From: Spirochaetia bacterium
GTDB taxonomy: Bacteria; Spirochaetota; Spirochaetia; Treponematales; UBA12059
Direction of reading: 5' to 3'
Length of the DNA stretch: 32,198 nucleotides
Assembly: GCA_034004175.1 (NCBI GenBank)
Contig: JAVEXH010000001.1
Location: forward strand, 1 to 32,198
Below, piece by piece: positions 4,251 through 29,694 of the stretch. Under the pieces are notes generated by a model. The model searched no databases. It saw only the letters and a program-made list of their open reading frames with translations, and was not told where the DNA came from. The number at the start of each line of letters is the position of its first letter. Position 1 is the stretch's first letter. The position numbers and the translations under genes are program-made.

Positions 4251-4256
4251 TGCACC

Positions 4257-8486: not shown

Positions 8487-8621
8487 AAAGACCACCTTTT
8501 GCTGTATACAGGAATGCCACGGATGATCGGAATGTATTCCCACCCTCCGTGGCCTTTTTGCCCGCAGGCTGTTGAAAAAGCGGTAGCCCCTCAACAGCCT
8601 GCTCTTTCTACCGGAACACTA

Positions 8622-9752: not shown

Positions 9753-9788
9753 AATCTCCTTACCTCCGTTTGGTTGAAAACTTGCACC

Positions 9789-9817
9789 ATTATCACCCTG
9801 TTGTCCTGGTTTCTGAA
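9789..9817 (-). promoter_or_regulatory. candidate promoter of the chvE-gguAB transporter genes (TTCAGA-N17-GATAAT)
   Basis: On the minus strand, TTCAGA (9817-9812), a 17-nt spacer and GATAAT (9794-9789), ~37 nt upstream of the chvE ATG. The weak -35 would fit activator dependence on the adjacent AraC-type regulator. Sequence inspection only. Confidence 0.3.
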
Positions 9818-9896
9818 ATCGTAAACTTTTGACAATAAGCGGTACTTTCTGGAGAGTGTGCTGTCTCAAGCCAGCTGTATGGGTAAAAAAGCGATG

Positions 9897-14855: not shown

Positions 14856-14901
14856 CGGGGCAGTATACCCCCCCTTTTTGGCGGGCACAAGCAAATGAAG
14901 A

Positions 14902-15924
14902 CTAGGGTCTGTGTCCGCGTGCGAAGGTTCCCATGGCCATGACATTGGCTTCAGGTGAATCGCCTGGCAGTTCGCAGCCTGCACCGACTATCCACTTCTG
15001 GTTGCCTGCATCGTGCAGGCAGTCCGACAGGGTCCGGTGGACATCCTCGGGTGTGCCTCCTCGGACCACCGAGACGGTATCGATGTTACCCAGGAGTATG
15101 CGGTCAGGACCAAGGGCAGCGCGCGCCTTGGCGACGGGAGAGAGGGTATCAAGGTCTATGATATCGTAGGGTACGTCCACAAGGAGGGGCATGAGTTCCA
15201 TGGTGTTTCCACAGATATGAAGTCTGGCCAGCGCACCGGCCTCATGGATCGCGGTTACGATGGTCTTATGGTGTTTCAGGGTGAATTCGACAAAGATATC
15301 CGGCCCCATCAGGGACGAAGCGGCATCTCCGACGCCGATCAGATCTGCCCCCGCCTGTATCTGGGCCAGGGCAAAGCTGATGGCCTGCCGGGTGGTAAAC
15401 TCGAAGAGTTCCCTGACAAAGTCCGGATCGTCGTAAAAGTCCATCATGAGCCGCGATAGTCCCCGGAGGTCGGCCCCTTCAGCGCAGGGGCCTTCGATCC
15501 AGCCCTCTACCAGCAGCGTTCCACTGACCGCGGAAGCCAGGCCGGCCACCGCTTCCAGCCGGTTGGACATACGCTTGCCCTCCCCGGGGTCGATGATCTT
15601 CAGGGAAGCCAGACGGCTCTTGTCCAGGAGGAAGGCCTTCGCATCATCATTGGCCGGGGGCTCGTCATCGTAGAAGATTACCCCTCCACCGAGGTCGGAG
15701 GCCTCCACCGCCGGATCGGAAATGGCGGATACATGATCCGCGCCATAGCGTTCTGCGAAGGCCAACTGCCCCTTGACCAGCGCATGGTGGTCTGTGGCGT
15801 AGAGCAGGTATGGAACACCGATGCCCCTGGCAGCGAAACTCATGGTGATGGGCATGAAGGGTATACGATCTCCCACACCTCCAGCGATGACTGATCTGAT
15901 CAGTCCAGCTCCGTTCATCGGCAT
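14902..15924 (-). CDS. uroporphyrinogen-decarboxylase-family protein, MtaA/MtbA/CmuA-like methylcobamide methyltransferase (MT2)
   Basis: 340 aa with the URO-D TIM-barrel family look. Putative Zn ligands as in MtaA-type enzymes: RLHICGNT (His-x-Cys) and GAGCELP. AAAGGGGA SD 5-6 nt upstream of the ATG. Confidence 0.75.
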   Translation of the reverse strand: MPMNGAGLIRSVIAGGVGDRIPFMPITMSFAARGIGVPYLLYATDHHALVKGQLAFAERYGADHVSAISDPAVEASDLGGGVIFYDDEPPANDDAKAFLLDKSRLASLKIIDPGEGKRMSNRLEAVAGLASAVSGTLLVEGWIEGPCAEGADLRGLSRLMMDFYDDPDFVRELFEFTTRQAISFALAQIQAGADLIGVGDAASSLMGPDIFVEFTLKHHKTIVTAIHEAGALARLHICGNTMELMPLLVDVPYDIIDLDTLSPVAKARAALGPDRILLGNIDTVSVVRGGTPEDVHRTLSDCLHDAGNQKWIVGAGCELPGDSPEANVMAMGTFARGHRP

Positions 15925-16157: not shown

Positions 16158-16619
16158 TCAGATGGCTCCTGAACTCTTGCGTTCGTTCTGGCCTATCTCG
16201 AAGGCTTGCTGGGAAATGATGCGGCCTTGGCGCTCTATGAGGGCCTTTACCACGTCACCGATGGAGATGACACCGACCAGTTTGCCGTTCTCCTTGACCG
16301 GGAGGTGTCGGAAATGATGGGCAGTCATAAGATCCATGCAGTTTTCTATGGAATCCGAGGGGTCTGCATAGACGATTTTCTTGGTCATAACCTCTTTTAC
16401 TATGGTCGTATCACAGGAATTGGCCTTGAGTATTATCTTTCGGGCAAAATCACGCTCCGAGAAAATGCCGGCTACTTCACCTGAAGCATCAAGCACGAGG
16501 ATGGCCCCGATGTTGTGTTCTGCCATGACTTCAAGGGCTTTCATGATGCCGGTTTCCGGCGTGACGCTGACTACTTCTGTTCCCTTTGAAGCGAGGATGT
16601 CCTTTACCTTCTCCACCAT
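16158..16619 (-). CDS. stand-alone CBS-pair domain protein
   Basis: 153 aa with two CBS repeats (VVSVTPETGIMKALEVMAEHNIGAILVLD...GIFSERD and VYADPSDSIENCMDLMTAHHFRHLPV...GVISIGD). AGGAGG SD. Divergent from the 13-gene operon. Confidence 0.85.
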   Translation of the reverse strand: MVEKVKDILASKGTEVVSVTPETGIMKALEVMAEHNIGAILVLDASGEVAGIFSERDFARKIILKANSCDTTIVKEVMTKKIVYADPSDSIENCMDLMTAHHFRHLPVKENGKLVGVISIGDVVKALIERQGRIISQQAFEIGQNERKSSGAI

Positions 16620-16752: not shown

Positions 16753-16780
16753 TTTACATATGTTTAACCTGAGCTATACT
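16753..16780 (+). promoter_or_regulatory. candidate sigma70-type promoter of the 13-gene operon (TTTACA-N16-TATACT)
   Basis: TTTACA at 16753-16758 and TATACT at 16775-16780, ~50 nt upstream of ATG 16832. TTTACATAT occurs twice as a direct repeat (16739-16747, 16753-16761). Confidence 0.35.
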
Positions 16781-16831
16781 GTCATAGAAATTTTGACCCG
16801 CTCCGGCGGGTATGCATCGAGGGGGAATCCT

Positions 16832-17329
16832 ATGATGACGATCAAGGCTCGAGTGCTGGGTTTCCTGGGTTTGTGGGCTGTGTGGCTTCTGCTGACGGCT
16901 CCCTGGACCACCCAGGAGGCTGTTGCGGGTGCACTGGTAGCGCTTCTTGTCTCCCTGTTGCCACTGTCAGGGGCATCACCACTTGGTGACCTGAAGCTGA
17001 GTCCGAAGGCCTTGGCCTCCCTGGTGGTGTATGTGTTTGTCTTCATCAAAGCCCTGGTGCAGTCCAATCTTGATGTAGCCTTCCGGGTGCTTCATCCGAG
17101 ACTGCCTATCGATCCGGGCATCGTGAAGGTAAAGACCAGGCTGAAGACCCCCTTGGGACGCCTGTTGCTTGCCAATTCCATAACCCTGACTCCAGGGACC
17201 ATAACCGTGGAGATGCACGGTGATGATCTGTACATCCACTGGATAAAGGTGGCCGACCCGGATCCGGAGGCTGCAACCGCGGCCATCGTCGGGAACTTCG
17301 AGAAGTATCTGGAGGTGATCTGTGGCTGA
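16832..17329 (+). CDS. MrpE/MnhE-like subunit (MbhA/MbxA position)
   Basis: Two N-terminal TMs plus the family motif NSITLTPGTITVE. Preferred start is ATG 16832 (GAGGGGG 6 nt upstream) rather than track start 16760. Confidence 0.8.
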   Translation: MMTIKARVLGFLGLWAVWLLLTAPWTTQEAVAGALVALLVSLLPLSGASPLGDLKLSPKALASLVVYVFVFIKALVQSNLDVAFRVLHPRLPIDPGIVKVKTRLKTPLGRLLLANSITLTPGTITVEMHGDDLYIHWIKVADPDPEAATAAIVGNFEKYLEVICG

Positions 17330-17582
17330 TGCGGTGTTTTACGTGGCCGTTGGCATTGCCGTACTGGCCCTGCTGCTGTCCGGCATACGTTTTGCCCTCG
17401 GGCCCTGGGCTATCGACCGGACCGTTGCCCTGGATGCCATGACCATACTGGCAACCTCCCTGATAGTGGCCTTTGCGCTTCTGTCCGGCAGGCGGATCTA
17501 CATCGACGTAGCCATGGTCTATGGCTTGGTCGGCTTTGCCGGTGTGGTGGCGGTGGCCCGCTACCTGGAAGGAGGCTTGTGA
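17322..17582 (+). CDS. MrpF/PhaF-like subunit (MbxB position)
   Basis: 86 aa, 3 TM, typical MrpF length and pattern (LGPWAIDRTVALDAM...YIDVAMVYGLVGF). GTG start has GGAGG 6 nt upstream and overlaps the previous stop by 8 nt. Confidence 0.8.
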   Translation: MADAVFYVAVGIAVLALLLSGIRFALGPWAIDRTVALDAMTILATSLIVAFALLSGRRIYIDVAMVYGLVGFAGVVAVARYLEGGL

Positions 17583-17959
17583 TGCTTGCCGTCATCGGAG
17601 CCTTTGTCAGTCTGACCGGCGCGGTGTTCTTCCTGCTTGCGGCCATAGGCCTCTTGCGCATGCCTGATGCCCTCAACCGCATGCAGGCAGGCACCAAAGC
17701 CACTACCCTGGGATCGATCCTTTTCCTTTTCGGCATAGGCATGATGCAACCCGGTTATCTGGGCCGGGTATTCATTCTTGTGGTCTTCATAGTGCTTACC
17801 AACCCGGTCAGTTCCAACGCCCTTGCACGGGCCGCCCATGCCAACAGGAAGCGTATCGGTGCCAGCCTGTCGATCGACGCCCTGGCCGATGATGAAGCTG
17901 CCATAGCGGCTGAAGACAGGAAAGCCGGCGGAAACAAGGAGGCAGTCCATGGTGCTTGA
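17582..17959 (+). CDS. MrpG/MnhG-like subunit (MbxC position)
   Basis: MnhG signature LRMPDALNRMQAGTKATTLG. ATG 17582 lies 6 nt after GGAAGGAGG (TGATG overlap); GTG 17579 is an alternative. Confidence 0.8.
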   Translation: MLAVIGAFVSLTGAVFFLLAAIGLLRMPDALNRMQAGTKATTLGSILFLFGIGMMQPGYLGRVFILVVFIVLTNPVSSNALARAAHANRKRIGASLSIDALADDEAAIAAEDRKAGGNKEAVHGA

Positions 17960-18275
17960 TATCATGCTACTGTCCGCAGGAGCCATCATGGTCGCCGCAG
18001 GCATAGGCGCTGTCCTGGCGAGGAGCCTGCTCGTCTCCATCATATTGTCCGGCGGCGTAAGCCTGGTGGCCAGCCTGGTTTTCCTGCTCATCGGCGCTCC
18101 TGATGTAGCCATGACCGAGGCTGCAATCGGCTCGGGCCTGACCACCGTGGTCTTCCTGTATGCCCTGTCCCGGGCCAGGCAGGCCGATGACGAGGACTCC
18201 GATGCTGCCGAGATCGGTGCCTCGCCCGTAGTAGCTGAAACCGGGACAAACCAGGAACAGGGAGGCCGGACATGA
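17949..18275 (+). CDS. MbhD/DUF4040-like subunit (MrpA C-terminal-like; MbxD position)
   Basis: 108 aa, 3 TM, motif GAPDVAMTEAAIGSGLTTV characteristic of the MrpA-C/MbhD family. AAGGAGG SD. Confidence 0.75.
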   Translation: MVLDIMLLSAGAIMVAAGIGAVLARSLLVSIILSGGVSLVASLVFLLIGAPDVAMTEAAIGSGLTTVVFLYALSRARQADDEDSDAAEIGASPVVAETGTNQEQGGRT

Positions 18276-18970
18276 TGCGAAGATTCCTTGTTCTGGCTGT
18301 GATCATCGCCCTTGGTGTGGCGATGTGGCCTCTGGTGATGGGTGCCGGGGTTGTCGATGCACCTGCTGCCCTGCCTTCTGCCTACCTGGACGGCGCTCCG
18401 AAGGACTTCGGGGCGGCCAATGTGGTTACCGCCATTGTGGTCAGTTACCGCGGCTTTGATACCTTGGGAGAGGTGGCCGTGCTGTTCGCAGCTACCGCCG
18501 GTGTTGGTAGCCTGTTGTCGCGCAAGCGGCTTGGGACCGGCCTGCCGGCCAGCGGACGCAAGCACGGCACTGAGATCCTGGGAACCGCCAGCAGGCTGTT
18601 GTCCAGCCTCCTTGTCATGTTCGGTGTATACATCTTCATGCATGGACACCTGACCCCGGGCGGCGGTTTCCAGGGCGGTGTGGTCATAGCTACGGCCATG
18701 TTGCTGGCCTTGCTGTCCAACCCTGATTCCCACCTGGCCCACGGTGCCATGACCGCAGTTGAGTCGTTGTCCGGGGCGGCCTACGTAGCCCTGGCCTTGC
18801 TGGGAGCCTTCCTCGGGCTGGGCTTCCTGGATCCACGGATCCTTCCCCCGGGTTCCGTAGGTGCCCTGGTAAGTGCGGGAACCATTCCACTCATCTATTC
18901 TGTCATCGGGCTCAAGGTCGGCGCCGAGCTGTCCGGCATCCTGGATGCACTGAAAGGAGACAGGACATGA
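18272..18970 (+). CDS. MnhB/MrpB-domain subunit (MbxF position, with N-terminal MbhE-like helix)
   Basis: MnhB motifs NVVTAIVVSYRGFDTLGE and GHLTPGGGFQGG. ATGA-type overlap with the previous gene. GGAGG SD. Confidence 0.8.
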   Translation: MMRRFLVLAVIIALGVAMWPLVMGAGVVDAPAALPSAYLDGAPKDFGAANVVTAIVVSYRGFDTLGEVAVLFAATAGVGSLLSRKRLGTGLPASGRKHGTEILGTASRLLSSLLVMFGVYIFMHGHLTPGGGFQGGVVIATAMLLALLSNPDSHLAHGAMTAVESLSGAAYVALALLGAFLGLGFLDPRILPPGSVGALVSAGTIPLIYSVIGLKVGAELSGILDALKGDRT

Positions 18971-19338
18971 ACATGTTAGACTTCCTTGCCCAGCTGAACC
19001 CCGTTGCGGTTCCCGGTGCCATACTCATACTGGTGGGGCTGTGGGGCGTACTGGCCAGGCCCAACCTGTTCAAGATTGCCGTGGCCTTCTGCGTCCTTGA
19101 GACCGGTGTGAACATGCTGATCCTGTCCGTCGGGTACATCCGTGGCCGTACGGCACCCATCTACGATGCGGGTGCCCCGACCGCTGCGCGTATGACCGAT
19201 CCGGTGCCCCAGGCCCTGGTCCTGACTGCCATTGTCATCGGACTTGCGGTTACCGCCCTCATGCTCAGCTATGCAGTGCGCCTGCGCAGCGGCGGTGGCG
19301 CTTCTTCCATAGAAGCCTACGGAGAAGAAAAATGGTAA
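18967..19338 (+). CDS. MnhC/MrpC, NuoK-like subunit (MbxG position)
   Basis: 123 aa, 3 TM with an acidic residue in a TM (CVLETGVNMLIL), as in the NuoK/MrpC family. AAGGAG SD 7 nt upstream. Confidence 0.75.
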   Translation: MNMLDFLAQLNPVAVPGAILILVGLWGVLARPNLFKIAVAFCVLETGVNMLILSVGYIRGRTAPIYDAGAPTAARMTDPVPQALVLTAIVIGLAVTALMLSYAVRLRSGGGASSIEAYGEEKW

Positions 19339-22300
19339 ACCCCCTCTACTTCTTCGCCGCTTCCATGGCGGTAGCCTTCATCCTGCCCCTGGCTGACAAG
19401 CTTGGCAGACGGCTGTCCTTGTTCATACTGTATGCCGTAACGGCAGCCTGGGCAGCGGCTGGAGCCTCCTGGCTGCTGGCCCTGCTTCAGGATGGTTTCC
19501 AAAGTGCACTGCAGAGCGGCGCTGCCACCGACTTCGGTACTGCCGGCTTCGGCGCTCCCCTGGCCATTGTGCTCAGGGTAGGGCTGGTTGAGGCTGCAGC
19601 GGTACTGGCCATAGGTCTTGTAGGCCTGTTGTCCGCTGCCTTCATGCACCGCGACCTGCACAAGGCACCTCTGGGTGGCTCCATGGCCTTCATCATGGCA
19701 GTCATGGGCCTTGCAGGCATCGTCCTGACCAGGGACCTCTTAAACCTGTTCGTGTTCCTGGAAATCTCCGCCATTGCCACCTATGGACTCATAGGCTTTG
19801 ATGACCGCAGGCCTGCCCTGCGCTCGGCCTTCAAGTACATGATGGCCGGCGGCATTGCCAGCGCCCTGTACCTGATAGGCGTCATCTACGTGTACCGCTT
19901 CGGGGACACCCTGAACCTGGACATAGCCGCCGCCGCCTTGGCTGCAAGTGGCACCGCCGGCCTCGGCAGCGCCGCCGGTACGGTTGCCATCTTCTTCCTG
20001 CTGGCAGCCCTGCTGGTGGAGCTGAAGCCCTTCCCGGCCAATGGCTGGGGTATCGATGTCTACGAAACCGCCAATCCCGGTGTGGCTGCCCTGCTGTCCG
20101 GGGCCTCGGCTACCGCCCTGGTGGTGGCGCTCTGGAAGCTGCTGCCCATCCTGGGCACTGCCCACCTGGCCATAGTGGCAGGCAGCGGGCTGGCTACCTT
20201 TGCGGCTGCCAACCTGGCCGGTGCCCGCCAGAGCGGTACCAGGCGTATGCTTGGCTACTCCTCGGCCGCCCAGATAGGCCTCGTAACCGCAGTGGTGGCC
20301 CTGGTGAAGCTTTTGAACCTCGGCGACTCCGGCTTCATGCTGATGGTGGCCGGGGGTCTGACCCTGAACCACCTCCTGGCCAAGACCGGCCTCTTCCTGC
20401 TTTCCGGCATGTTGGGTGACGACGACAGCAAGGCTATCATGTCGCCCCTTACCCTGGCGGTGGCCGGCATGCTGGCCCTTGGCCTGGTAGGCCTGCCTCC
20501 CTTCTCCGGCTTCTGGGCCAAGTGGCAGTTGGTGCAGGCCCTGGCCTCCGGCGGGCATTTCTGGATCATCGTCATAGTACTGGGCGGAAGCCTGGTGGAA
20601 GCCTTCTATATATTCCGCTGGCTTGGCCGTCTTGCAAAAGCCAGGCAGGCTGCCGCTGATCCACTGGCTGCCAGTCTGGCCGATGCCGGCCTCCTGAGGG
20701 CTGGCCGGCAACTAGCCGGCCCGGCCCTGATGGCCGTGGCTCTGGCTGGCTTCGGTGTGCTGGCTGGCCTGGATGCGTTGGCTGGGTTGGAAGTGCTGAC
20801 TGGGGCCGGCGGGAATGCCGCTGTTGCCGGTCTTGCCGGATACCTCCTCTGGGCGCCTTACCTGGCCGTGGCGATGCTGTTCCTGGTGGACCGGGCTCCC
20901 GGCTGGTTCAAGGGGTTGTTGTCCCTCGCGGCGATTGCCGGTTTCGGCTGGCTGGCCTGGGACGGGCTGGATGCACTGCGGCAGTTCTTCGCGGTTATGC
21001 TGCTCGGGGGCGGGGCCATGTACGCTGTGGCTGCGCTCCGCAAGGGCGGAGCCAGACCGGGGCTGCATCCGCTGATGACCATGGTTACCCTGTCACTTGG
21101 TGCAGTGCTGGTGGCGCAGAGCCCTCTGGGCTTCTTCTTTGCCTGGGAAACGATGACGCTGTCCAGCTGGCTCCTGGTACTCCGGGGCCGCAGAGCCGAG
21201 AAGCCAGCCCTGGCCTACATAGTCTTTGGCCTCGGTGGTGCCTTCCTGTTGATGACCGGCCTGGCAGCTGGCGGGCTTGGGACAGCCGGACTCGGGATGG
21301 CCGGGATGGCTGCCGCAGGCAGTTCCGCAACCGCAGCCTGGCCCTTTGCGCTGGTGCTCGTAGGTATTCTGGTGAAGACCGGTGTGCTGGGCCTGCATGT
21401 GTGGCTGCCGGGCTCTTATGCCGAGGCAGACGACGAGGTGTCCGGCCTCCTGTCGGCTTCCCTGTCAAAAGCGGCGGTCTTTGCGCTCTTTGCCCTGGTT
21501 CTGGCCAATGGAGTACCTGGAGCCCTGGCTCTTGGTCCCTGGGCCTGGCGCGCCTTGGGCTGGGTAGGCCTTGTCACCGCCATGATAGGCGCCCTGTACG
21601 CCATCTACCAGGAAGACATCAAGCTTACCCTGGCCTGGTCTTCCATGGGACAGATAGGCTATGTGGTGCTGGCCTTTGCGGTGATGGACCACGCAGGCTG
21701 GACTACCGCACTGTACCTGGCCCTGAACCATTTCCTGTACAAGTCCATGCTGTTCCTGGCCATTGCCGGGGTCATCCAGCGGACGGGAACGCGCAACATG
21801 TACGAGATGGGCGGGCTCATCAAGAAGATGCCCCTGTCCTTCCTTACGGTGCTGATGGCCATCATCGCCCTGTCCGGTGTGCCGCCCCTCTCCGGCTTCG
21901 GAGCCAAGTGGCTGCTGTATTCCACCCTGATCAGCAAGGGCTGGTATCTTGAGGCTGCAGCTGCCTTCTTTGCCAGCGGTGTGGCCTTCCTGTACCTGTA
22001 TCGACTGATACACTCCATCTTCCTGGGCCAGCCCAAGTCGGAACACAAGGATATCCGGGAAGCTCCATTGGCCCTCATCCTGCCCCAGGTCGGCCTGATG
22101 GCCGTCCTGATGGCGGTGTCGGTCTTCCCGTCCCTTATGCTCAACCCGATACTGGCGATTGCCGGCAACAGCTTCGAGCCTATCTTCCGCTTCGCAGGTT
22201 CCGCCCTGCAGTCTCCCCTTGGCTACTGGAACGGCACCCTGACCATGGTGGTAACCGGCGTGGTCTTCGTCCTCTGCCTGGTGTGGATGATGGTCAACCT

Positions 22301-22583
22301 TCACAACCCGCAATCGGTGAAGCAGTTCAACATTGTGTTTGCAGCCGAGCGGCCCCTGAGGCCCAATACCACCCATTACGCCTGGGCCTTCTTCGAGCCA
22401 TACCGTGACGCACTGGGCTTTTTGACCAGATCCAGAGTCGAGCGCTTCTGGTCGACTTTTGGTACCGGTATCAACGGAATCGGAGGAGTCCTGCGAAGGC
22501 TGTACACGGGCAACGGCCAGACTTACGCACTCCACGTCGTCATCTATGTGGTGGCACTCTACTTTTTCATGGGGGCCTTCTGA
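19332..22583 (+). CDS. fusion of two antiporter-like (NuoN/MrpD-type + NuoL/M/HyfB-type) proton-pump modules (MbxH-MbxH' equivalent in one polypeptide)
   Basis: 1083 aa. Module 1 (~aa 1-455): LFVFLEISAIATYGLIGF, ELKPFPANGWGIDVYETANPGVAALLSG, PPFSGFWAKW. Module 2 (~aa 560-1083): WETMTLSSWLLV, LVKTGVLGLHVWLPGSY, WSSMGQIGYV, NHFLYKSMLFLAIAG, PPLSGFGAKW. No stop or frame change between them. Confidence 0.85.
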   Translation: MVNPLYFFAASMAVAFILPLADKLGRRLSLFILYAVTAAWAAAGASWLLALLQDGFQSALQSGAATDFGTAGFGAPLAIVLRVGLVEAAAVLAIGLVGLLSAAFMHRDLHKAPLGGSMAFIMAVMGLAGIVLTRDLLNLFVFLEISAIATYGLIGFDDRRPALRSAFKYMMAGGIASALYLIGVIYVYRFGDTLNLDIAAAALAASGTAGLGSAAGTVAIFFLLAALLVELKPFPANGWGIDVYETANPGVAALLSGASATALVVALWKLLPILGTAHLAIVAGSGLATFAAANLAGARQSGTRRMLGYSSAAQIGLVTAVVALVKLLNLGDSGFMLMVAGGLTLNHLLAKTGLFLLSGMLGDDDSKAIMSPLTLAVAGMLALGLVGLPPFSGFWAKWQLVQALASGGHFWIIVIVLGGSLVEAFYIFRWLGRLAKARQAAADPLAASLADAGLLRAGRQLAGPALMAVALAGFGVLAGLDALAGLEVLTGAGGNAAVAGLAGYLLWAPYLAVAMLFLVDRAPGWFKGLLSLAAIAGFGWLAWDGLDALRQFFAVMLLGGGAMYAVAALRKGGARPGLHPLMTMVTLSLGAVLVAQSPLGFFFAWETMTLSSWLLVLRGRRAEKPALAYIVFGLGGAFLLMTGLAAGGLGTAGLGMAGMAAAGSSATAAWPFALVLVGILVKTGVLGLHVWLPGSYAEADDEVSGLLSASLSKAAVFALFALVLANGVPGALALGPWAWRALGWVGLVTAMIGALYAIYQEDIKLTLAWSSMGQIGYVVLAFAVMDHAGWTTALYLALNHFLYKSMLFLAIAGVIQRTGTRNMYEMGGLIKKMPLSFLTVLMAIIALSGVPPLSGFGAKWLLYSTLISKGWYLEAAAAFFASGVAFLYLYRLIHSIFLGQPKSEHKDIREAPLALILPQVGLMAVLMAVSVFPSLMLNPILAIAGNSFEPIFRFAGSALQSPLGYWNGTLTMVVTGVVFVLCLVWMMVNLHNPQSVKQFNIVFAAERPLRPNTTHYAWAFFEPYRDALGFLTRSRVERFWSTFGTGINGIGGVLRRLYTGNGQTYALHVVIYVVALYFFMGAF

Positions 22584-23497
22584 TGGAAACTTCGATACTC
22601 GCCCGCATCGGCTATGCCCTGGTATCCCTGTTCGTCATAACCAACTACGGCCTGCTGCTCATAGGATCCATGGCGCGGATAAGTGCCAAGGTCCAGGGCC
22701 GTGTGGGCCAGCCGGTCTACCAGCCTTACCTGGACATCATCAAGAGCACGGCCAAACGCAACACCATAAGCCATGGCATCATGTTCTACCTGGGGCCTGT
22801 CTTCCGCCTGGCAGGCGGGGTAGGCACCTTCATGTTCATACCCATGGTGTACGGTTCGGTGCTGTTCCGGAACTTCAGCGATTCCGGTGACCTCCTGCTG
22901 GTGATGTACTTCATCTTCTTCGGCCAGCTTGGCATGGCCCTGGGAGCCAGTGAAGGCGGCCACCCCTACAGTGCCCTCGGCGTAAGCCGGGGCCTGGCCC
23001 AGATGACGGCCTTTGAAGTGCCCTTTGCCCTGTCGGTGATAGCGGTGGTCATACAGTACGGCACCCTGGATATTACCGCCATAGTTGGGGCCCAGCAGGG
23101 CGGGTTCATGAACTGGACCCTGTTTAACAACCCGGTGGCCGTGCTTGCCGCGATGATAGCCTTCCTGGGCATGTCGGGTCACAACCCTTTCAGTGTCGTC
23201 ATAGCACCCCAGGAAATACCCATAGGGCCGCCGACGGAATACCAGAGCAACCTCCTGGGCATGCTGCAGACCAACCGGGCCATCTTCAACGGCGCCAAGC
23301 TGGTTCTGTACATGAACCTCTTCTTCGGCGGTGGTACGAACATTGTCATTGTTGTGATAAAAACCTTCTTGATATATTTCGTGAATGTGTTCGTGGGGCA
23401 GGCCTTCCCACGGCTCCGGACCGACCAGTCGATCCGGTTCTTCCTCGGCGTGCCCACACTCATAGGCATTGCCGGCGTCATCATAGCTGTGCTGTAG
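22583..23497 (+). CDS. NuoH/HycD/MbhM-like membrane subunit
   Basis: 304 aa, ~8 TM. N-terminal pattern RISAKVQGRVGQPVYQPYLDIIK matches the R-x-A-x-Q-x-R-x-GP...QP-x-D-x-xK motif of the NuoH/HycD family. TGATG overlap with the preceding gene. Confidence 0.85.
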   Translation: METSILARIGYALVSLFVITNYGLLLIGSMARISAKVQGRVGQPVYQPYLDIIKSTAKRNTISHGIMFYLGPVFRLAGGVGTFMFIPMVYGSVLFRNFSDSGDLLLVMYFIFFGQLGMALGASEGGHPYSALGVSRGLAQMTAFEVPFALSVIAVVIQYGTLDITAIVGAQQGGFMNWTLFNNPVAVLAAMIAFLGMSGHNPFSVVIAPQEIPIGPPTEYQSNLLGMLQTNRAIFNGAKLVLYMNLFFGGGTNIVIVVIKTFLIYFVNVFVGQAFPRLRTDQSIRFFLGVPTLIGIAGVIIAVL

Positions 23498-23507
23498 GAG
23501 GCGCCTC

Positions 23508-24173
23508 GTGTCAGACAAACAAATCAAACCGGCGCCTTCGGCGACAACAAGAGCTGAATCCTTGACAACGCCGCTGGCCAACGAGGGCCTGCCGCCTGAA
23601 GAGCATGCGTACTTCTGCGATGTGCCGCCCCGGGAATACGAACCTGCCACCAAGGTGGTGGAGGATTTCTGGAACTGGGCCCGGGCCCAGAGCCTGTGGG
23701 TGCTGGGCTTCGGTACCGGCTGCGGCGCCGTGGAACTGCGGCCCCTGATGACCAGCCGCTTCGACATGTACCGCTATGGCATACAGCCGCGGCCAACGCC
23801 CAGACAGTCATCGGTCTTTGTCATCGGCGGCTACGCCTCGGTGAAGACCCTGAAGCGCATCGTCCGCAGCTACGAGCAGATGATGGGACCCAAGTTCGTG
23901 CTGGCCCTTGGCAGCTGCACCATCAACGGCGGCATGTACTGGGACAGCTACAACACCATCAAGCGCATAGACCAGTACATACCCGTGGATGTGTACATCG
24001 CGGGCTGCATGCCCAGGCCCGAGGCTCTGCTGGCAGGCTTCCAGGAGTTGAAGAAAATCATCCGGGCAGGCCAGGCAGACGGCCAGAACGAATACGCCCG
24101 GAACTTCGAATGGTACAAAGAGAACCAGAAGAAGGTCATCAAGGACTGGAACATGCCGGATTACAACTGGTAG
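23508..24173 (+). CDS. NuoB/HycG/MbhJ-like small subunit with incomplete Cys ligand set and an N-terminal extension
   Basis: Colinear by eye with E. coli NuoB: NWARAQSLWVLGFGTGCGAVE / TPRQSS / GSCTINGGMY / IPVDVYIAGCMPRPEA. GTG start has AGGAGG 6 nt upstream. Confidence 0.85.
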   Translation: MSDKQIKPAPSATTRAESLTTPLANEGLPPEEHAYFCDVPPREYEPATKVVEDFWNWARAQSLWVLGFGTGCGAVELRPLMTSRFDMYRYGIQPRPTPRQSSVFVIGGYASVKTLKRIVRSYEQMMGPKFVLALGSCTINGGMYWDSYNTIKRIDQYIPVDVYIAGCMPRPEALLAGFQELKKIIRAGQADGQNEYARNFEWYKENQKKVIKDWNMPDYNW

Positions 24174-24183
24174 GAGGCCGCAT

Positions 24184-24729
24184 ATGATCAAACTTGCTAC
24201 TGAACTGGCGGCCCGTTACGGCTCCCGGGGCTGGCGGAACCAGCGCCCGGATCTGGCCGTCGTGCAGATCGACCTTGCCAGGCTGCATGACGCCCTTGCC
24301 TGGCTCAGGGACAACGCGGGGTACACCCATCTGTCCTTCATGACCGCGATCGACAATATCGAACGCGGTGTCTTTACCCTGACCTACACCCTGCGTAACC
24401 ACGCCTGGAATGATGGCAAGGGCCACAGCCTGATGGTCCATGCCGATGTGGACCGCAGCAAGCCCGTGGTTGATTCCATCCACCGGCTCTGGGGCCAGGC
24501 CTGGACCTACCAGCGGGAGATGAAGGAATGGTTCGGCATCGACTTCCCCGGCAGCCCCAGGGTTGATGAGGAGTTCGTGCTGGAAGGCTGGCAGGGACCG
24601 CCCATGATGCGCCGCGATTTTGACAGCCTGGTCTACAGCGAAGCCACCTATACCGAGCGTCCCGGCCGGGTTACCCACGACCCCGAAACCTACATGAAAG
24701 AGAAGCTGTACCCGGAGGCCCAGGCATGA
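24184..24729 (+). CDS. NuoC/30-kDa/MbhK-like subunit
   Basis: 181 aa. C-terminal family motif WTYQREMKEWFGIDFPGSP (ERE-x-x-D-x-FGI-x-F-x-GHP type). AGGAGG SD. Confidence 0.8.
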   Translation: MIKLATELAARYGSRGWRNQRPDLAVVQIDLARLHDALAWLRDNAGYTHLSFMTAIDNIERGVFTLTYTLRNHAWNDGKGHSLMVHADVDRSKPVVDSIHRLWGQAWTYQREMKEWFGIDFPGSPRVDEEFVLEGWQGPPMMRRDFDSLVYSEATYTERPGRVTHDPETYMKEKLYPEAQA

Positions 24730-25889
24730 AAAAGCAAACTCAACACATTGTGCCTCCTGCCGAACGCGCTGACATTGACCTGGACTCAGGCAAGTACCTG
24801 GTTATGTGGCAGGGGCCCAACCACCCCGGCATAACCGGCAACATGTCCCTGCGGCTGGTAATTGAAGGAGACACCGTAGTCGACTGCGAGACCCACGTGG
24901 GCTACCTGCACCGGGGTTTCGAGAAGCTCATGGAACGACGGTTGTGGATGCAGAACTTCCCGCTGGTGTGCCGCATCGCGGTGCCCGAGCCTGACTTCAA
25001 CGAATACTGCTACGCTGCCGCGCTGGAGGAACTCGCTGGCGTGGAGGTTCCCGACAAGGCCATATGGCTGCGCACCCTGTCCCTGGAGATGATACGCCTG
25101 GCCAGCTTCCTGATGTGGATAGGCGGGCAGGCCGGCGCCTTCGGGCACGGCACCATTGGCCAGTGGACAGTAACCATGCGCGACTACGTGCTGGACCTCT
25201 TCGAGGAACTGACCGGCGGCCGCATCTACCACATGTATATCATACCCGGCGGTGTCCGTGGCGATGTGCCTCCCGGTTTCCTGAAGCATGTGCTACAGAC
25301 CATGGACATCATCCAGAAAAACCTGGATGACATTGAACTGGTAATGTTCCATAACGTGGTCTACAAGATGCGTGCCCAGGGCCTGGGCTACATACCGCCG
25401 GAATGGATCGACCAGTACGGCATCACCGGGCCCAATGCCAGGGCTGCAGGTGTCAATCGTGACCTGCGCAAAGACCTTGGCTATCTGGCCTATCCGCGGC
25501 TCGACTTCCAGCCCATAACCAGCACGGTCTCCGATGCCTACGAGCGGTCCAGGCTGCGTCTGCTGGAAACGCATCAGGCTATCGACCTGATACGCCAGAT
25601 AGTGGCCAACCTGCCGTCAGATGGCCCCTTCCGGGAGAAGCTGCCCAACCCCTTGTACTGGAAGATACCCGCCGGCGAGACCTATGTGGCAGCCGAATGC
25701 ACCCGGGGTGAGTACGGTTTCTATGTGGTTTCCGATGGCTCGGACAAGCCCCGGCGGGTCGCGGTGCGAGGACCCAGCTATACCCATGCGGTGTCTGTGA
25801 TGGAGCGCCTGGTGCGGGGCGTGAACATAGCAGACGTGGCCGGCCTGATGGTCAGCCTTCATACCTATCCGCCCGAAGTCGAGAGGTGA
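24726..25889 (+). CDS. NuoD/49-kDa/[NiFe]-hydrogenase-large-subunit-like protein lacking all Ni-Fe cysteine ligands
   Basis: 387 aa. Family motifs: GPNHPG, HVGYLHRGFEKLME, GGRIYHMYIIPGGVR, ECTRGEYGFYVVSDG, RVAVRGPSYTH. Ends ...SLHTYPPEVER. ATGA overlap with the NuoC-like gene. Confidence 0.85.
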   Translation: MKKQTQHIVPPAERADIDLDSGKYLVMWQGPNHPGITGNMSLRLVIEGDTVVDCETHVGYLHRGFEKLMERRLWMQNFPLVCRIAVPEPDFNEYCYAAALEELAGVEVPDKAIWLRTLSLEMIRLASFLMWIGGQAGAFGHGTIGQWTVTMRDYVLDLFEELTGGRIYHMYIIPGGVRGDVPPGFLKHVLQTMDIIQKNLDDIELVMFHNVVYKMRAQGLGYIPPEWIDQYGITGPNARAAGVNRDLRKDLGYLAYPRLDFQPITSTVSDAYERSRLRLLETHQAIDLIRQIVANLPSDGPFREKLPNPLYWKIPAGETYVAAECTRGEYGFYVVSDGSDKPRRVAVRGPSYTHAVSVMERLVRGVNIADVAGLMVSLHTYPPEVER

Positions 25890-25893
25890 GGCA

Positions 25894-27750
25894 ATGGATA
25901 TAAAGGACTTCATCGCGCCCTTTGCGGTGTGGAAGCGGGCTTTCGAGAAACCCTTCACGGTAAAGAAGCCCATAGACGAGCGCCCTGGCGCACCACGGTA
26001 CCGGGGCTTCCATATAAACGATTCAGCCAGGTGTGTGGGTTGCGGTACCTGCGAAGCCATCTGCATGAACAATGCCATAGATATGGTTCCGGTTGACGAT
26101 TTGTTGCCGGATGGTGGTGATTCGGGCCTGCGGCCCCGGGTGGACTACGGCCGCTGCTGCTGGTGTGCCCTCTGCGTGGACATCTGTCCCTCGGGCTCTC
26201 TTGGCATGAGCAATGAGTATGTCTGGGTAGACCGCGACCCCGAAGTATTCCGCTACACCCCCGGTGTGGAGGCCAAGCCCTGGGACGGCGCCGAACTGGG
26301 TTACCGCCGGGCCGATGGCTACCGCCTGCTTGAAGAAGAACGAGTGGACATGCCCGAGCTGGACCACCACGAAGCAGTGAAATCCTTCCTTGAACTGGTT
26401 CGGGGCTACTCCCGGGAGCAGGCCGAGAAGGAAGCCGACCGCTGCGTATCCTGCGGGGTCTGCGTGGCATCCTGCCCGGCCCATATGGACATACCAGGCT
26501 ACATCCGGGCTGTGCGTGAGGGCGATCTGGAGGAAGGCCTGCGGCTGCTGTACGAGACCAATCCCTTTCCCGAGGCCTGTGGCCGCATCTGTACCCACCT
26601 CTGCGAGGCCGCTTGTTCAGTAGGATCGGGGATGAATGCCGACGGAACTCCGACAGACCCGGTGGCTATACGCTGGCTGAAACGCTACATAGCCGACCAG
26701 GTGGAGCTGGCCGATTACGGCAAGGCCCTGCCCAGGGCCGAAGCTCCCACCGGCAAGAAGATTGCCATAATCGGTGCAGGACCCGGCGGCTTGGCCGCAG
26801 CCTATTATCTGGCCCTGCTTGGCCATGGCGTTACGGTATTCGAGAAAGACGAAGCCGCCGGCGGCATGCTGCGCTACGGCATCCCTGAATACCGCCTGCC
26901 GTACCCCGCCCTGGACAAGGACATAGCCTGGATCACCTCCCTGGGTGTAGAGATACGTTACGGAACGGCAGTGGGCAAGGATCTGAGCCTGGCGTCCCTG
27001 TACAGCGACTACGATGCCGTATTCCTGTCCACCGGCCTTACGGTGGCCTACAAGCTGGATGTGCCTGGCGACAGCCACCCCCGGGTGCTGGACGGCGTGG
27101 CTGTACTTGCCGCCGCAACCAGAGGCGAGCCCCTAGGGCTTGGCCAGAAAGTGGCTGTGGTCGGCGGCGGCAACGTCGCCATGGACGCCGCACGGACGGC
27201 CCTGCGCAACGGCGCCGAGGTGGACATAGTCTACCGCCGCCGGGAAGTGGACATGCCAGCGGACCCCGAAGAGATCATGGAAGCCAAGGCCGAAGGTGCC
27301 ACTCTCATAGCCCAGGCAATTCCCCTGGAAGTGAAGCCCGCAACCGGTCCCGGTGCCGGGCCGGTTGCTGCCGACAAGGCCGGGTCGGATGCCGCCGGCG
27401 AGACCGCCACCAAGGCAACTTTCGTCTGGAACCTGGCGGAGATGGTGCAGAAGGAGCCGGGCAAGCGCCCCGTTCCCGAGCCCATACCCGGTGCAGTGGT
27501 CGAGAAGACATACGACTCCATCATAGCCGCCATAGGCCAAGGCCCGGACCTGTCGTACGTGGCCGAATCCGATGGCATAGAGCTGCGTCGATACAAACCG
27601 GTGATCGGTCCCGATGGCCGCACCAGCCGTGCCACCGTTTTTGCCGGCGGAGACCTGACCAACGACCGCAAGGACGCCATCTCTGCCATAGCCGACGGCC
27701 ACCGCGCCGCCCTGGCCATGGATCGCCTCCTTGCCGGAAAGGAAGCCTGA
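25894..27750 (+). CDS. fusion protein: NuoI/MbhN-like 2x[4Fe-4S] ferredoxin domain + GltD/SudA/NfnB-like NAD(P)H-dependent FAD oxidoreductase
   Basis: aa 47-57 CVGCGTCEAIC and aa 88-99 CCWCALCVDICP (NuoI-type). aa 184-195 CVSCGVCVASCP and 229-241 CGRICTHLCEAAC (GltD N-terminal Fe-S region). KKIAIIGAGPGGLAAAYYL...EKDEAAGGMLRYGIPEYRLP (FAD site). KVAVVGGGNVAMDAART...VYRRR (NAD(P)H site). VFAGGDL...AIADGHRAALAMD. Confidence 0.85.
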   Translation: MDIKDFIAPFAVWKRAFEKPFTVKKPIDERPGAPRYRGFHINDSARCVGCGTCEAICMNNAIDMVPVDDLLPDGGDSGLRPRVDYGRCCWCALCVDICPSGSLGMSNEYVWVDRDPEVFRYTPGVEAKPWDGAELGYRRADGYRLLEEERVDMPELDHHEAVKSFLELVRGYSREQAEKEADRCVSCGVCVASCPAHMDIPGYIRAVREGDLEEGLRLLYETNPFPEACGRICTHLCEAACSVGSGMNADGTPTDPVAIRWLKRYIADQVELADYGKALPRAEAPTGKKIAIIGAGPGGLAAAYYLALLGHGVTVFEKDEAAGGMLRYGIPEYRLPYPALDKDIAWITSLGVEIRYGTAVGKDLSLASLYSDYDAVFLSTGLTVAYKLDVPGDSHPRVLDGVAVLAAATRGEPLGLGQKVAVVGGGNVAMDAARTALRNGAEVDIVYRRREVDMPADPEEIMEAKAEGATLIAQAIPLEVKPATGPGAGPVAADKAGSDAAGETATKATFVWNLAEMVQKEPGKRPVPEPIPGAVVEKTYDSIIAAIGQGPDLSYVAESDGIELRRYKPVIGPDGRTSRATVFAGGDLTNDRKDAISAIADGHRAALAMDRLLAGKEA

Positions 27751-27751
27751 C

Positions 27752-28207
27752 ATGAACCAGACAGATTTTGCCGGGGCCCTTGAACTGGCCCTGGCCAGGG
27801 AAGAAGCAGCGGTTGCCTTCTACGAAGAATTGATGGGCATGGCCTCTTTTGCCGCCCAGAAGTCCACACTCCGGGAGTTCAGGCTCATGGAAGAAGGACA
27901 TGTGGCCATGGTCAAGTCCATGCAGGCCAAAGGCAGGGTAAACCTGTCACCCGATGCCGCCGTGGACCTTGGCCTGGCCCGCCGCCTGGCGGCCGAAGAA
28001 AAACCAGCCGCCGGCATGAGCTACCAGCAGATCCTGTCAGCCGCCATAAAGAAGGAAGAGCGCAGCAGCGACTTGTACCGTGACCTGGCCGCCGCTGCGG
28101 TTGACGGCGAGATACACCTGGTGTTCGAGCGCCTGGCAGCCGAAGAAAGCAGGCACAAGCACTACTTCGAGGAACTGTACGAGAACGAGGTGAGTAGAGA
28201 TAATTAG
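27752..28207 (+). CDS. rubrerythrin/ferritin-like diiron four-helix-bundle protein without rubredoxin domain
   Basis: 151 aa with no Cys. Ligand pattern E...ExxH twice (REEAAVAFYEE, MEEGH, KKEERSSDLY, AEESRH). ATG at 27752 lies 1 nt after the TGA of the upstream gene, with GGAAAGGAAG upstream; track start 27731 rejected. Confidence 0.7.
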   Translation: MNQTDFAGALELALAREEAAVAFYEELMGMASFAAQKSTLREFRLMEEGHVAMVKSMQAKGRVNLSPDAAVDLGLARRLAAEEKPAAGMSYQQILSAAIKKEERSSDLYRDLAAAAVDGEIHLVFERLAAEESRHKHYFEELYENEVSRDN

Positions 28208-28374: not shown

Positions 28375-29694
28375 ATGGAACGATTGCTTGTAAAGGAACT
28401 TGAGGCATGGAAAAGCCGACAAGGCAGGAAACCCCTGCTTCTCAAGGGCGTACGCCAATGTGGCAAGACGTATCTGCTCAGGGAGTTCGGCAAAGCACAT
28501 TTCAGTGATGTCGCATACTTCAATTTCGAGCTTACCCCAGCCCTTTCAGGTCTCTTTGAAATTGATCTGGATCCATCCCGCATCATCACTGAACTGGGTA
28601 TCCTGCAAGGGCAGAAGATCGAGACTGAGACAACCCTGATCATCTGGGATGAGGTACAGTTCTGCCCTAAGGCTCTGACCGCCCTCAAGTATTTCTCGGA
28701 GCTGGCCCCAGGGTATGCCTTGGCCTGTGCTGGCTCACTTCTGGGTGTGGCCTTGTCGAAACCCTCCTCTTTTCCGGTGGGTAAGGTTGATATCCTGGTT
28801 CTGCGGCCGATGGATTTCCGTGAGTTCCTGGTAGCAAGCCAGGAGAAGCAACTCATCGACTATGCAGCCGGTTTGCCTCCGGATGGGCAGCTTTCCCAAG
28901 CGTTGATTGACAAGTTTTTGGTAGCCCTCAGGATGTTCCAGATAATCGGCGGAATGCCTGAAGCAGTCTCAGCATGGCTACAGAACCGGAATATGGCTGA
29001 GGTGGAGAGAATACAGGATGCCATCCTGGCTAGCTATGAGCTTGATTTTGCCAAATATGCCCCTCCTGCGGATTTTCCGAAGCTCAAGCTGATATGGAAG
29101 AGCATCCCTGCCCAGTTATCCAGGGAAAGCGGGAAATTCCTGTACGGCCACGCAAAGCCGGGGGCACGGGCCAAGGATCTGAAGGACGCCCTGGGCTGGC
29201 TTACCGAGGCAGGCCTTGCATACAAGGTAGGAAGGGTAGAGAAACCAGCCTTCCCCTTGTCCGCCTATATGGACCAGAAAGCCTTCAAGCTGTACCTGGC
29301 GGATATCGGGTTGCTGCGCCGTCTGGCAGGAGTGCCGGGTTCTGTCATGCTCGACGGGAATACCCTGTACAGCGAGTTCAAAGGTGCTCTGATGGAAAAC
29401 TTTGTCCTGAATGAGTTGCTGCGCTTTCTGGGAGACCTGCCCAGCTACTGGACTTCCGGGAATCAGGCAGAGGTGGATTTTGTCTTCCAGTACCATGACA
29501 GCATCCTGCCCCTGGAAGTAAAAGCAGCGACGAATATTCGCTCCCGAAGTTTGGCTGCCTACAGGGAAAAGTACCGACCGCAACTGGCCTTGCGGACCTC
29601 ACTGATGGCGTGCAAGTCCGAGGATGGGCTGTTGAACATTCCGTTGTATCTCTTATGGAACATGGCTGTGTATGTGAGGAAGGTGCTTTCCTGA
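28375..29694 (+). CDS. AAA+ ATPase with C-terminal DUF4143 / PD-(D/E)xK nuclease-like domain
   Basis: Walker A GVRQCGKTYL and Walker B LIIWDEVQ. C-terminal EVDFVF...LPLEVKAA resembles a D...ExK restriction-endonuclease-fold motif. AAGGGG SD 8 nt upstream. Confidence 0.8.
   Translation: MERLLVKELEAWKSRQGRKPLLLKGVRQCGKTYLLREFGKAHFSDVAYFNFELTPALSGLFEIDLDPSRIITELGILQGQKIETETTLIIWDEVQFCPKALTALKYFSELAPGYALACAGSLLGVALSKPSSFPVGKVDILVLRPMDFREFLVASQEKQLIDYAAGLPPDGQLSQALIDKFLVALRMFQIIGGMPEAVSAWLQNRNMAEVERIQDAILASYELDFAKYAPPADFPKLKLIWKSIPAQLSRESGKFLYGHAKPGARAKDLKDALGWLTEAGLAYKVGRVEKPAFPLSAYMDQKAFKLYLADIGLLRRLAGVPGSVMLDGNTLYSEFKGALMENFVLNELLRFLGDLPSYWTSGNQAEVDFVFQYHDSILPLEVKAATNIRSRSLAAYREKYRPQLALRTSLMACKSEDGLLNIPLYLLWNMAVYVRKVLS

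Follow-up and report, generated by a model that had tools for sequence, protein, structure and literature searches.

The large-subunit gene and its operon

This study examined a window of 32,198 nucleotides (nt; the whole stretch of DNA analyzed) from a Spirochaetia bacterium (contig JAVEXH010000001.1, positions 1 to 32,198 of the forward strand), focusing on the open reading frame (ORF) 24726-25889 (+), which translates to a protein of 387 amino acids (aa). The ORF matches the NuoD/49-kDa family (Pfam Complex1_49kDa, PF00346; expectation value E=1.6e-62) and is the eleventh of 13 co-directional genes at 16760-28207, in which neighboring genes overlap or lie within ~10 bases of each other. It is near certain that the product of this ORF is the large subunit, of the MbsL/MbxL type, of a Spirochaetota member of the bacterial Mrp-Mbx complexes, which are complex-I-like, presumably ion-translocating membrane oxidoreductases descended from the group-4 [NiFe] hydrogenases. 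Relatives were collected in a scan of one genome per species, in which at least 595 stretches encode relatives; the best 80 were kept for the counts given below, with position 381, E384, E386 and R387 counted in the 79 relatives that reach the C-terminus. The genes of the operon and the residues of interest in the large subunit are the following:

16760..17329, plus strand: MnhE-type subunit (MbsA position), first gene of the operon (Pfam MNHE, E=1.4e-39)
17322..17582, plus strand: MrpF/PhaF-type subunit (MbsB position; Pfam MrpF_PhaF, E=5e-17)
17579..17959, plus strand: MnhG-type subunit (MbsC position; Pfam PhaG_MnhG_YufB, E=3.8e-23)
17949..18275, plus strand: MbhD-type membrane subunit (Pfam MbhD, E=3.9e-20)
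18272..18970, plus strand: MbhE/MnhB-type membrane subunit (Pfam MnhB, E=1.8e-21, and MbhE, E=9.6e-11)
18967..19338, plus strand: NuoK/MnhC-type subunit (MbsG position; Pfam Oxidored_q2, E=3.4e-18)
19332..22583, plus strand: two fused antiporter-like (NuoL/M/N, MrpD) modules, 1083 aa (Pfam Proton_antipo_M in two stretches; NCBIfam matches at residues 8-432 and 547-1079)
22583..23497, plus strand: NuoH/MbsM-type membrane anchor of the peripheral arm (Pfam NADHdh, E=4.8e-47)
23508..24173, plus strand: NuoB/MbsJ-type small subunit (best solved match 6u8y_J, E=9e-67)
24184..24729, plus strand: NuoC/MbsK-type subunit (Pfam Complex1_30kDa, E=1.6e-21)
24726..25889, plus strand: NuoD/MbsL-type large subunit (Pfam Complex1_49kDa; structural match 6u8y_L)
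24834..24836, plus strand: Thr37 of the beta1-beta2 loop, aligned with Nqo4 His38 (HMMER alignment; Thr in 80/80 relatives)
24972..24989, plus strand: R83-I-A85-V86-P-E88, remnant of R-x-C-G-x-C, with Val86 at the position of Nqo4 Tyr87 (alignments)
25860..25886, plus strand: H379-T-Y381-P-P-E384-V-E-R387, remnant of D-P-C-x-x-C-x-x-R (alignments)
25894..27750, plus strand: fusion of a NuoI/MbsN-type and an NfnB/GltD-type protein, 618 aa (Pfam Fer4_7, Fer4_20 and Pyr_redox_2; NCBIfam PRK13984, NuoI and gltA)
27731..28207, plus strand: Cys-free rubrerythrin/ferritin-like diiron protein, 158 aa (Pfam Rubrerythrin, E=3.6e-9)

The Mrp-type set (MnhE/F/G/B/C and two MrpD-like modules) and the NuoH/B/C/D/I homologs that characterize MBS/MBX operons are all present on one strand at 16760-27750. 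The stop codon of the NuoC-type gene overlaps the start of the large-subunit gene (24726-24729), and the fusion at 19332..22583 is the counterpart of the separate MbsH and MbsH' subunits in the sulfane reductase MBS of Pyrococcus furiosus. No NuoE, NuoF or NuoG homologs were detected when the operon genes and the remaining main long ORFs of the window were scanned against Pfam, although copies may exist elsewhere in the genome.

Ligand motifs of the large subunit

The columns of the former metal ligands were assigned in a MAFFT alignment of 272 sequences, comprising the product of ORF 24726-25889, 120 close homologs, 150 cluster representatives and MbsL. Large subunits of group-4 hydrogenases carry R-x-C-G-x-C and D-P-C-x-x-C-x-x-R in the same columns in which complex I NuoD has R-x-D-Y and D-x-x-x-G-E-x-D-R, and MBS-type sequences have R-I-C-V-P-E and D-x-C-P-P-D-I-D-R. 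Neither hydrogenase motif is found in the present protein, where the aligned stretches read 83-RIAVPE-88 (A85-E88 at nt 24978-24989) and 379-HTYPPEVER-387 (Y381-E384 at nt 25866-25877), placing Ala85/Glu88 and Tyr381/Glu384 at the four [NiFe] cysteine positions. The original prediction, which was made from the DNA letters alone, had read the same four replacements at the same coordinates, and both the translation and the 272-sequence alignment agree with it.

The only cysteines of the large subunit are C54, C82, C95 and C325. The original prediction had allowed that a proper alignment could place C82 or C95 at metal-ligand positions; such an alignment was rejected because the ligand columns are fixed by the hydrogenase, NuoD and MbsL sequences, and neither residue falls within them. 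Both are also poorly conserved, being Cys in 61/80 and 41/80 relatives, respectively. Lacking all four ligand cysteines, the large subunit cannot bind a [NiFe] center. Chance is not the relevant test for this absence because the state is inherited across a large family.

The quinone site was compared by HMMER alignment to Thermus Nqo4, which is gap-free across the residues concerned. Counting along this alignment puts Thr37 at the position of the complex I residue His38 and Val86 at that of Tyr87, confirming the earlier suggestion that the quinone-ligating His and Tyr are missing. With the [NiFe] cysteines and the His/Tyr pair both absent, the protein is neither an H2-evolving hydrogenase nor a standard quinone reductase, as had been proposed. 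The ORF nevertheless scores 388.8 bits against the NCBIfam model PRK06075 ('NADH-quinone oxidoreductase subunit D'; cut-off 360), which explains why relatives carry this name in public records. The label is probably wrong, since the quinone-binding residues are absent, and it could lead metabolic reconstructions to assume quinone reduction.

Relationship to the archaeal sulfane reductase

With the large subunit as HMMER query, the closest solved structure was MbsL of P. furiosus MBS (6u8y_L; E=1e-93, 43% identity), followed by Thermus Nqo4 (8e-62), MbhL (6cfw_L; 4e-35) and HycE (7z0s_E; 5e-26). The same complex provided the best solved match for all three peripheral-arm subunits with a redox role (L, 1e-93; J, 9e-67; NuoI part, 1e-23). 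An AlphaFold2 monomer model of the large subunit (predicted local distance difference test score, pLDDT, 84; predicted template-modeling score, pTM, 0.88) gave its top template-modeling (TM) scores with 6u8y_L (0.88/0.91, root-mean-square deviation 3.0), and complex I 49-kDa subunits also matched with TM-scores of ~0.85. The least confident parts of this model were the chamber-lining segments 31-40, 81-90 and 382-387.

Mapping onto P. furiosus MbsL pairs A85 with C85, E88 with E88, Y381 with C385 and E384 with D388. MbsL likewise lacks equivalents of Nqo4 H38 and Y87, and retains only two of the four [NiFe] cysteines, C85 and C385, which lie next to the proximal cluster (PMC7684303). MbsL C85A/C385A and MbsJ C25A mutants both retained wild-type activity with dimethyltrisulfide (PMC7684303). 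The proximal [4Fe-4S] cluster of MBS has three Cys ligands only (MbsJ C28, C93 and C123), and its open iron has been proposed as the catalytic site for polysulfide reduction (PMC7684303); a review repeats these points (PMC8165549). The absence of [NiFe] cysteines and quinone residues is the known, normal state of the MBS/Mbx branch. The present protein departs from P. furiosus MbsL in lacking also the two vestigial cysteines (Ala85 and Tyr381 here), a trait of MBS that is descriptive and not functional, since the C85A/C385A mutant is active (PMC7684303).

These comparisons bear on the suggestion of the original prediction that two carboxylates and a Tyr now line the former [NiFe] pocket and point to a different ligand or metal. 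In its favor, no relative departs from Glu88 or Glu384, many share Tyr381, and carboxylate-plus-Tyr sites can hold iron or other hard metals. However, both carboxylates are already present in P. furiosus MbsL as E88 and D388, and the MBS papers view the former [NiFe] site as a vestige unable to bind [NiFe] (PMC7684303, PMC8165549). Position 381 is Cys in 22/79 relatives, position 85 varies freely, and MBS mutants at these positions keep their activity (PMC7684303). A new metal or ligand site formed by Glu88, Glu384 and Tyr381 is very improbable on this evidence, and the suggestion did not hold up.

Partner subunits

The NuoB homolog aligns with MbsJ (6u8y_J) over 164 residues with zero gaps (E=9e-67), so that the shortened loop and the three-Cys proximal cluster pattern of the MBS/MBX small subunit are both present at the level of sequence. 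Its C72, C137 and C167 correspond to the MBS proximal-cluster ligands MbsJ C28, C93 and C123, and are kept in 71/71 relatives. MbsJ C25 is replaced by Gly69, and this position is Gly in 70/71. The tandem Cys-Cys that provides ligands for cluster N2 in complex I was not found in this partner subunit, whose motif G-T-G-C72-G holds a single Cys. Additionally, the protein has an N-terminal extension of ~49 aa (nt 23508-23654) that is absent from P. furiosus MbsJ and which in the bacterial homologs carries the motif [DE]-Y-[FY]-C37-x-x-x-P. C37 was considered as an obligatory fourth cluster ligand and rejected in this role; it is Cys in 56/71 relatives, and Ser, Leu or Ala in 14.

The fusion protein encoded at 25894-27750 combines a NuoI/MbsN-type domain with two [4Fe-4S] clusters (residues ~1-125) and an NfnB/GltD-type domain (~145-618) for which two further [4Fe-4S] clusters, flavin adenine dinucleotide (FAD) and a site for NADPH (reduced nicotinamide adenine dinucleotide phosphate) are predicted. 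Its solved relatives are MbsN (6u8y_N) for residues 5-120 and the NfnB-type structures 4ylf_B, 5jca_L and 9n5u_A for ~150-616. The fusion is a complete single ORF in 69/80 related loci, and all 17 of its cysteines are invariant in 72/72 sequences. Its second nucleotide-binding motif (GxGxxA...YRR) aligns with the matching stretch of Thermotoga NfnB (4ylf_B). NfnB is known as the NADPH-binding subunit, and we read the motif as a putative NADPH site in the fused GltD domain. Electron bifurcation at the GltD flavin was considered and is unlikely, since no NfnA-type partner ([2Fe-2S] plus a second flavin) was found in the scanned ORFs of the window or among the recurrent neighbors of related loci.

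Conservation and stepwise loss of cysteines

The 120 close homologs (66-94% identity) come from Spirochaetota, Cloacimonadota and Sphaerochaeta; in these, position 85 is Cys in 77, Ala in 42 and Ser in 1, and position 381 is Tyr in 119 and Asn in 1. The 80 relatives extend to Spirochaetota, Cloacimonadota, Bacteroidales, Calditrichaceae, Chlorobiota, Acidobacteria and Aminicenantes, to sulfur-oxidizing Gammaproteobacteria (Thiodiazotropha, Sedimenticola, Thiosymbion, Chromatiales) and to further Proteobacteria (Gallionellaceae, Rhodocyclales, Burkholderiales, and the Rhodobacterales Tropicimonas, Aliiruegeria, Celeribacter and Sinisalibacter). R83, V86 and E88 are invariant in these 80, together with the loop residues H33, T37, G38 and M40, and E384, E386 and R387 are kept in 79/79. 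Position 85, on the other hand, is Cys in 55, Ala in 23 and Ser in 2, and position 381 is Tyr in 57 and Cys in 22. Conservation of the four replacement residues had been offered in the original prediction as a check on its reading of the pocket, with lack of conservation as a point against it. The two glutamates stood up to this comparison, Ala85 did not, being variable, and Tyr381 proved to be specific to certain clades.

The two variable positions do not vary independently. Ala or Ser at position 85 is always paired with Tyr381, and Cys381 is always paired with Cys85, giving 22 relatives with both vestigial cysteines, 33 with one and 25 with none; the vestigial-Cys trait is therefore variable and not a defining one. 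In a rough neighbor-joining tree with midpoint rooting, the two-Cys state is found in two deep groups and Cys85/Tyr381 in derived groups, and the Ala/Ser85 sequences form three separate clades derived from Cys85/Tyr381 lineages. According to this placement, the cysteines were lost in the order Cys,Cys to Cys,Tyr to Ala/Ser,Tyr, with the last step repeated.

Conservation also speaks to whether the protein has any function. The loss of all four metal ligands is what a decaying, non-functional hydrogenase remnant might look like; yet the ORF is intact in a complete 13-gene operon with overlapping or abutting genes, ~110 columns are invariant among nine family members at 41-87% identity to ORF 24726-25889, relatives are encoded by the at least 595 stretches found in the scan, and the cofactor ligands of the partner subunits are all invariant. 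Decay is effectively refuted by these data.

Tyr381 is the sole replacement in the former [NiFe] pocket that is clade-specific (57 Tyr against 22 Cys). This pattern might be taken to mean that the complex is a minimal NADPH:quinone oxidoreductase in which Tyr381 convergently replaces complex I Tyr87 in headgroup binding and proton donation. The Tyr-bearing clades include Alpha-, Beta- and Gammaproteobacteria, which have quinones, and MBS and complex I have chamber openings of equal width (PMC7684303). The residues themselves speak otherwise, with an invariant Thr and an invariant Val at the positions of His38 and Tyr87, and with a NuoB homolog that lacks the tandem Cys-Cys of quinone-reducing enzymes. 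Tyr381 also occurs in Spirochaetota and Cloacimonadota, whose anaerobic fermenters usually have no quinones, and the Cys381 and Tyr381 clades do not differ in their chamber loop. Quinone reduction is accordingly judged improbable.

The terminal diiron gene and flanking genes

The last gene of the operon encodes a Cys-free diiron protein with two E...ExxH motifs and no rubredoxin domain, and its first 20 nt lie within the NuoI-GltD gene. Among the 63 related loci with enough downstream DNA, a diiron gene lies directly 3' of the fusion gene in 36, comprising 34/45 Tyr381 loci vs. 2/18 Cys381 loci (Fisher p=3e-6, a value not corrected for shared ancestry). The Cys381 (two-Cys) loci, which are mostly from Bacteroidales, instead have a dihydroorotate-dehydrogenase-like gene 3' of NuoI-GltD in 8/18, a Crp/Fnr-type regulator upstream in 10/18 and a cystathionine beta-synthase (CBS)-pair protein in 6/18; examples of these neighboring genes are at 6967-7953 in locus L041 and at 1222-1917 and 13991-14452 in locus L068. 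The combination of GltD and a dihydroorotate-dehydrogenase-like protein recalls dihydropyrimidine dehydrogenase and hints at another terminal module in the Bacteroidales-type clade.

The association of Tyr381 with the diiron gene raises a further proposal, that the Tyr381 clades, which usually carry this gene, form a functionally distinct class of complex-I-like enzymes. We consider this unlikely, although it can be given concrete form: members may act as reversible, ion-gradient-driven sulfide/sulfane:NADP+ oxidoreductases; they may act as reversible, ion-gradient-driven ferredoxin:NADP+ oxidoreductases supplying reductant for carbon or nitrogen fixation in sulfur- or iron-oxidizing bacteria; or they may be an oxygen-tolerant variant that has exchanged oxidation-prone thiols close to the open-iron cluster for other residues and gained a peroxide-scavenging partner. 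If true, the Tyr381 class would represent a respiratory or reverse-electron-flow enzyme of a new type, found in hundreds of species.

Just upstream of the operon, a CBS-pair protein is encoded divergently (16158-16619, minus strand). CBS-pair genes also adjoin the related operons in 7 loci, and a regulatory link may exist between the two. The remaining genes at 1-15924 of the window seem unrelated to the operon and encode an HD-GYP/HAMP signaling protein, an iron-type alcohol dehydrogenase, a phosphotransferase system EIIC permease, a sugar ATP-binding cassette transporter with three periplasmic binding proteins, an AraC-type response regulator with a histidine kinase, and a URO-D-family protein. 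Directly 3' of the operon lies an AAA_14 + DUF4143 ATPase gene (28375-29694, plus strand), around which the G+C content is ~0.54, as compared to 0.60-0.64 in the operon.

Proposed function

Combined, the sequence, structural and conservation data lead us to favor, with moderate confidence, a reading in which the MbsL/MbxL-type subunit serves as a non-catalytic scaffold and coupling element while an NADPH-linked reaction, probably of sulfane sulfur, takes place at the three-Cys cluster. The parts of this reading differ in strength: the data establish the fold, the operon and the ligand patterns with their conservation, and from these the order of the electron carriers, the substrate and the ion coupling are inferred. 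The scaffold and coupling role is the most likely function of the large subunit, and is the best supported of the options that the original prediction had listed for it. By analogy with MBS, the chemistry is probably located at the three-Cys cluster, which would either be fed by NADPH or feed it. Sulfane sulfur (polysulfide or persulfide) is our best guess for the substrate, again by analogy. It is favored because the small subunit carries exactly the MBS signature, because elemental sulfur induces Thermotoga maritima mbxA 4.4-fold (PMC9431562), and because the quinone-site residues are missing.

In the proposed mechanism, neither a cofactor nor a catalytic residue would reside in the large subunit, which would join the NuoB-like and NuoH-like subunits in walling a chamber beneath the proximal [4Fe-4S] cluster. 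NADPH would bind to the fused GltD/NfnB-type domain, and its electrons would pass from FAD through the two [4Fe-4S] clusters of the GltD N-domain and the two of the NuoI domain to the proximal cluster, where three Cys ligands would leave one iron open to act as the catalytic site, as has been suggested for MBS. The invariant beta1-beta2 loop (HPG[IV]TGNM) may then pass a redox-linked conformational change to the two antiporter-like pumps and the Mrp-type Na+/H+ module. The reaction could run either way, with its direction set by the organism. The same reading holds that the ancestor shared with archaeal MBS already had Glu/Asp at two of the former ligand positions, and that the last two cysteines were lost stepwise in the bacterial clade, first C385 to Tyr and then, several times, C85 to Ala or Ser. 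Such a stepwise loss fits the experimental dispensability of these cysteines in MBS.

Several points weigh against the sulfane-sulfur reading. Electron transfer from NADPH (~-320 mV) to polysulfide (~-260 to -270 mV) yields only ~10-12 kJ per electron pair, which is a marginal driving force for two pumps and an Mrp module. Relatives are also found in Rhodobacterales, Burkholderiales, Gallionellaceae and sulfur-oxidizing Gammaproteobacteria, groups that include aerobes or microaerophiles with no obvious need for NADPH-driven sulfur respiration. The linear electron wire is an assumption that depends on where the GltD domain sits with respect to the NuoI clusters, and literature searches found no report of the purification or assay of a GltD-fused bacterial enzyme. 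Lastly, ferredoxin could be the physiological partner, and the sulfur induction in Thermotoga fits a ferredoxin:NADP+ model equally well.

This ferredoxin model is the principal alternative and is judged less likely than the favored reading. According to it, the complex would work as a reversible ferredoxin:NAD(P)+ oxidoreductase that translocates ions and does an Rnf-like job: the NuoI clusters would accept electrons from reduced ferredoxin and NADP+ would be reduced at the fused GltD domain, whereas in autotrophs the reaction would run backwards on the ion gradient and make reduced ferredoxin. The large subunit and its chamber would then be a coupling device only, holding no substrate. The model fits the taxonomic spread of the family across fermenters and sulfur-oxidizing autotrophs. 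The reverse tricarboxylic acid cycle consumes reduced ferredoxin. Co-expression of this cycle with a putative Mrp-Mbx complex has been described for Endoriftia (PMC11636981). The architecture is also suggestive, given that an NADPH-binding flavoprotein is fused here to the subunit that in MBS takes ferredoxin electrons at the distal cluster (PMC7684303), and a ferredoxin:NADP+ function has been assumed for Mbx in a Mesotoga preprint (10.1101/322537) and in PMC4758237. Additionally, the driving force of ~130 mV (from standard potentials) is above that of NADPH to polysulfide.

The difficulty for the ferredoxin model is a mechanistic one. Energy coupling is tied to the proximal-cluster site in complex-I-like relatives. 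In the structurally studied complex I, NDH, MBH and MBS, redox chemistry is located at the proximal cluster or just below it (PMC7684303, PMC8165549), whereas a path from ferredoxin to NADP+ would bypass this cluster entirely; the three-Cys cluster, the chamber loop and the NuoH homolog are nevertheless strictly conserved. The archaeal prototype was itself first assigned ferredoxin:NADP+ activity, and is now described as passing electrons from ferredoxin to polysulfide (PMC7684303). The sulfane-sulfur reading, with the large subunit as scaffold, is retained as the favored one.

The three leftover active-site cysteines of MBS (MbsL C85 and C385; MbsJ C25), which are dispensable in vitro, are all absent from the present complex, which makes it a natural counterpart of the mutagenesis. 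Their loss fits chemistry at the three-Cys cluster, and also a scenario in which the [NiFe] site disappeared by degrees as complex I evolved. The GltD-fused Mbx-like complex is widespread, and the at least 595 stretches that encode relatives come from fermenters, symbionts, sulfur oxidizers and marine Alphaproteobacteria.

Comparison with known systems

The group-4 [NiFe] hydrogenases (MbhL 6CFW, HycE 7Z0S, EchE) have a homologous large-subunit fold in the same position of the peripheral arm, and differ in that 0/4 of their metal-binding cysteines are found here. The fold is likewise homologous to NuoD/Nqo4/49-kDa of complex I, from which the present system differs by Thr37/Val86, by Cys-Gly in the partner NuoB homolog vs. 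tandem Cys-Cys, and by an Mrp-type membrane arm. The system also agrees with the definition of Ehr complexes as summarized in PMC6349859, namely group-4 hydrogenase relatives without Ni/Fe-coordinating residues and with Mrp antiporter-like subunits; Ehr is a loose umbrella term, and the same source counts Mbx among the types of hydrogenase-related complex.

The likeness to P. furiosus MBS is much closer, and includes the fold and 43% identity in L, the subunit types of the operon, Glu/Asp in place of the second and fourth [NiFe] ligands, the lack of the quinone-site His/Tyr, and a small subunit with a three-Cys proximal cluster pattern and equal loop length. The differences are that MbsL has C85 and C385 where Ala85 and Tyr381 are found here, that MbsJ C25 is Gly, and that MbsH and MbsH' are separate there and fused into one protein here. 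MbsN, moreover, stands alone and receives electrons from ferredoxin, whereas no stand-alone NuoI-type subunit is encoded in this operon, the NuoI-type domain being fused to an NADPH flavoprotein of the GltD/NfnB type. An extra diiron gene at the end of the operon and the ~49-residue N-terminal extension of the small subunit complete the differences.

The bacterial mbx-like (Mrp-Mbx) operons of Thermotoga and proteobacteria, with an architecture published in 2015, have a gltD-related flavoprotein in place of NuoI and often a rubrerythrin as the last gene (PMC4758237). Both features are found here, in the 618-aa fusion (25894-27750) at the NuoI position and in the rubrerythrin-like ORF 27731-28207 that ends the operon, and the likeness to the Thermotoga and Endoriftia systems is one by published description. 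The NuoD homologs of mbx-like operons are described as keeping vestigial cysteines at the former [NiFe] positions (PMC4758237), whereas ORF 24726-25889 has none. The GltD-fused Mbx architecture and the Cys-poor MBS/Mbx state are thus already known, and the departure of the present system is the absence of any vestigial Cys. To this picture, the present comparison adds family-wide statistics on the stepwise and repeated loss of the last cysteines, the absence of an MbsJ C25 counterpart throughout the bacterial family, and the association of Tyr381 with the diiron gene.

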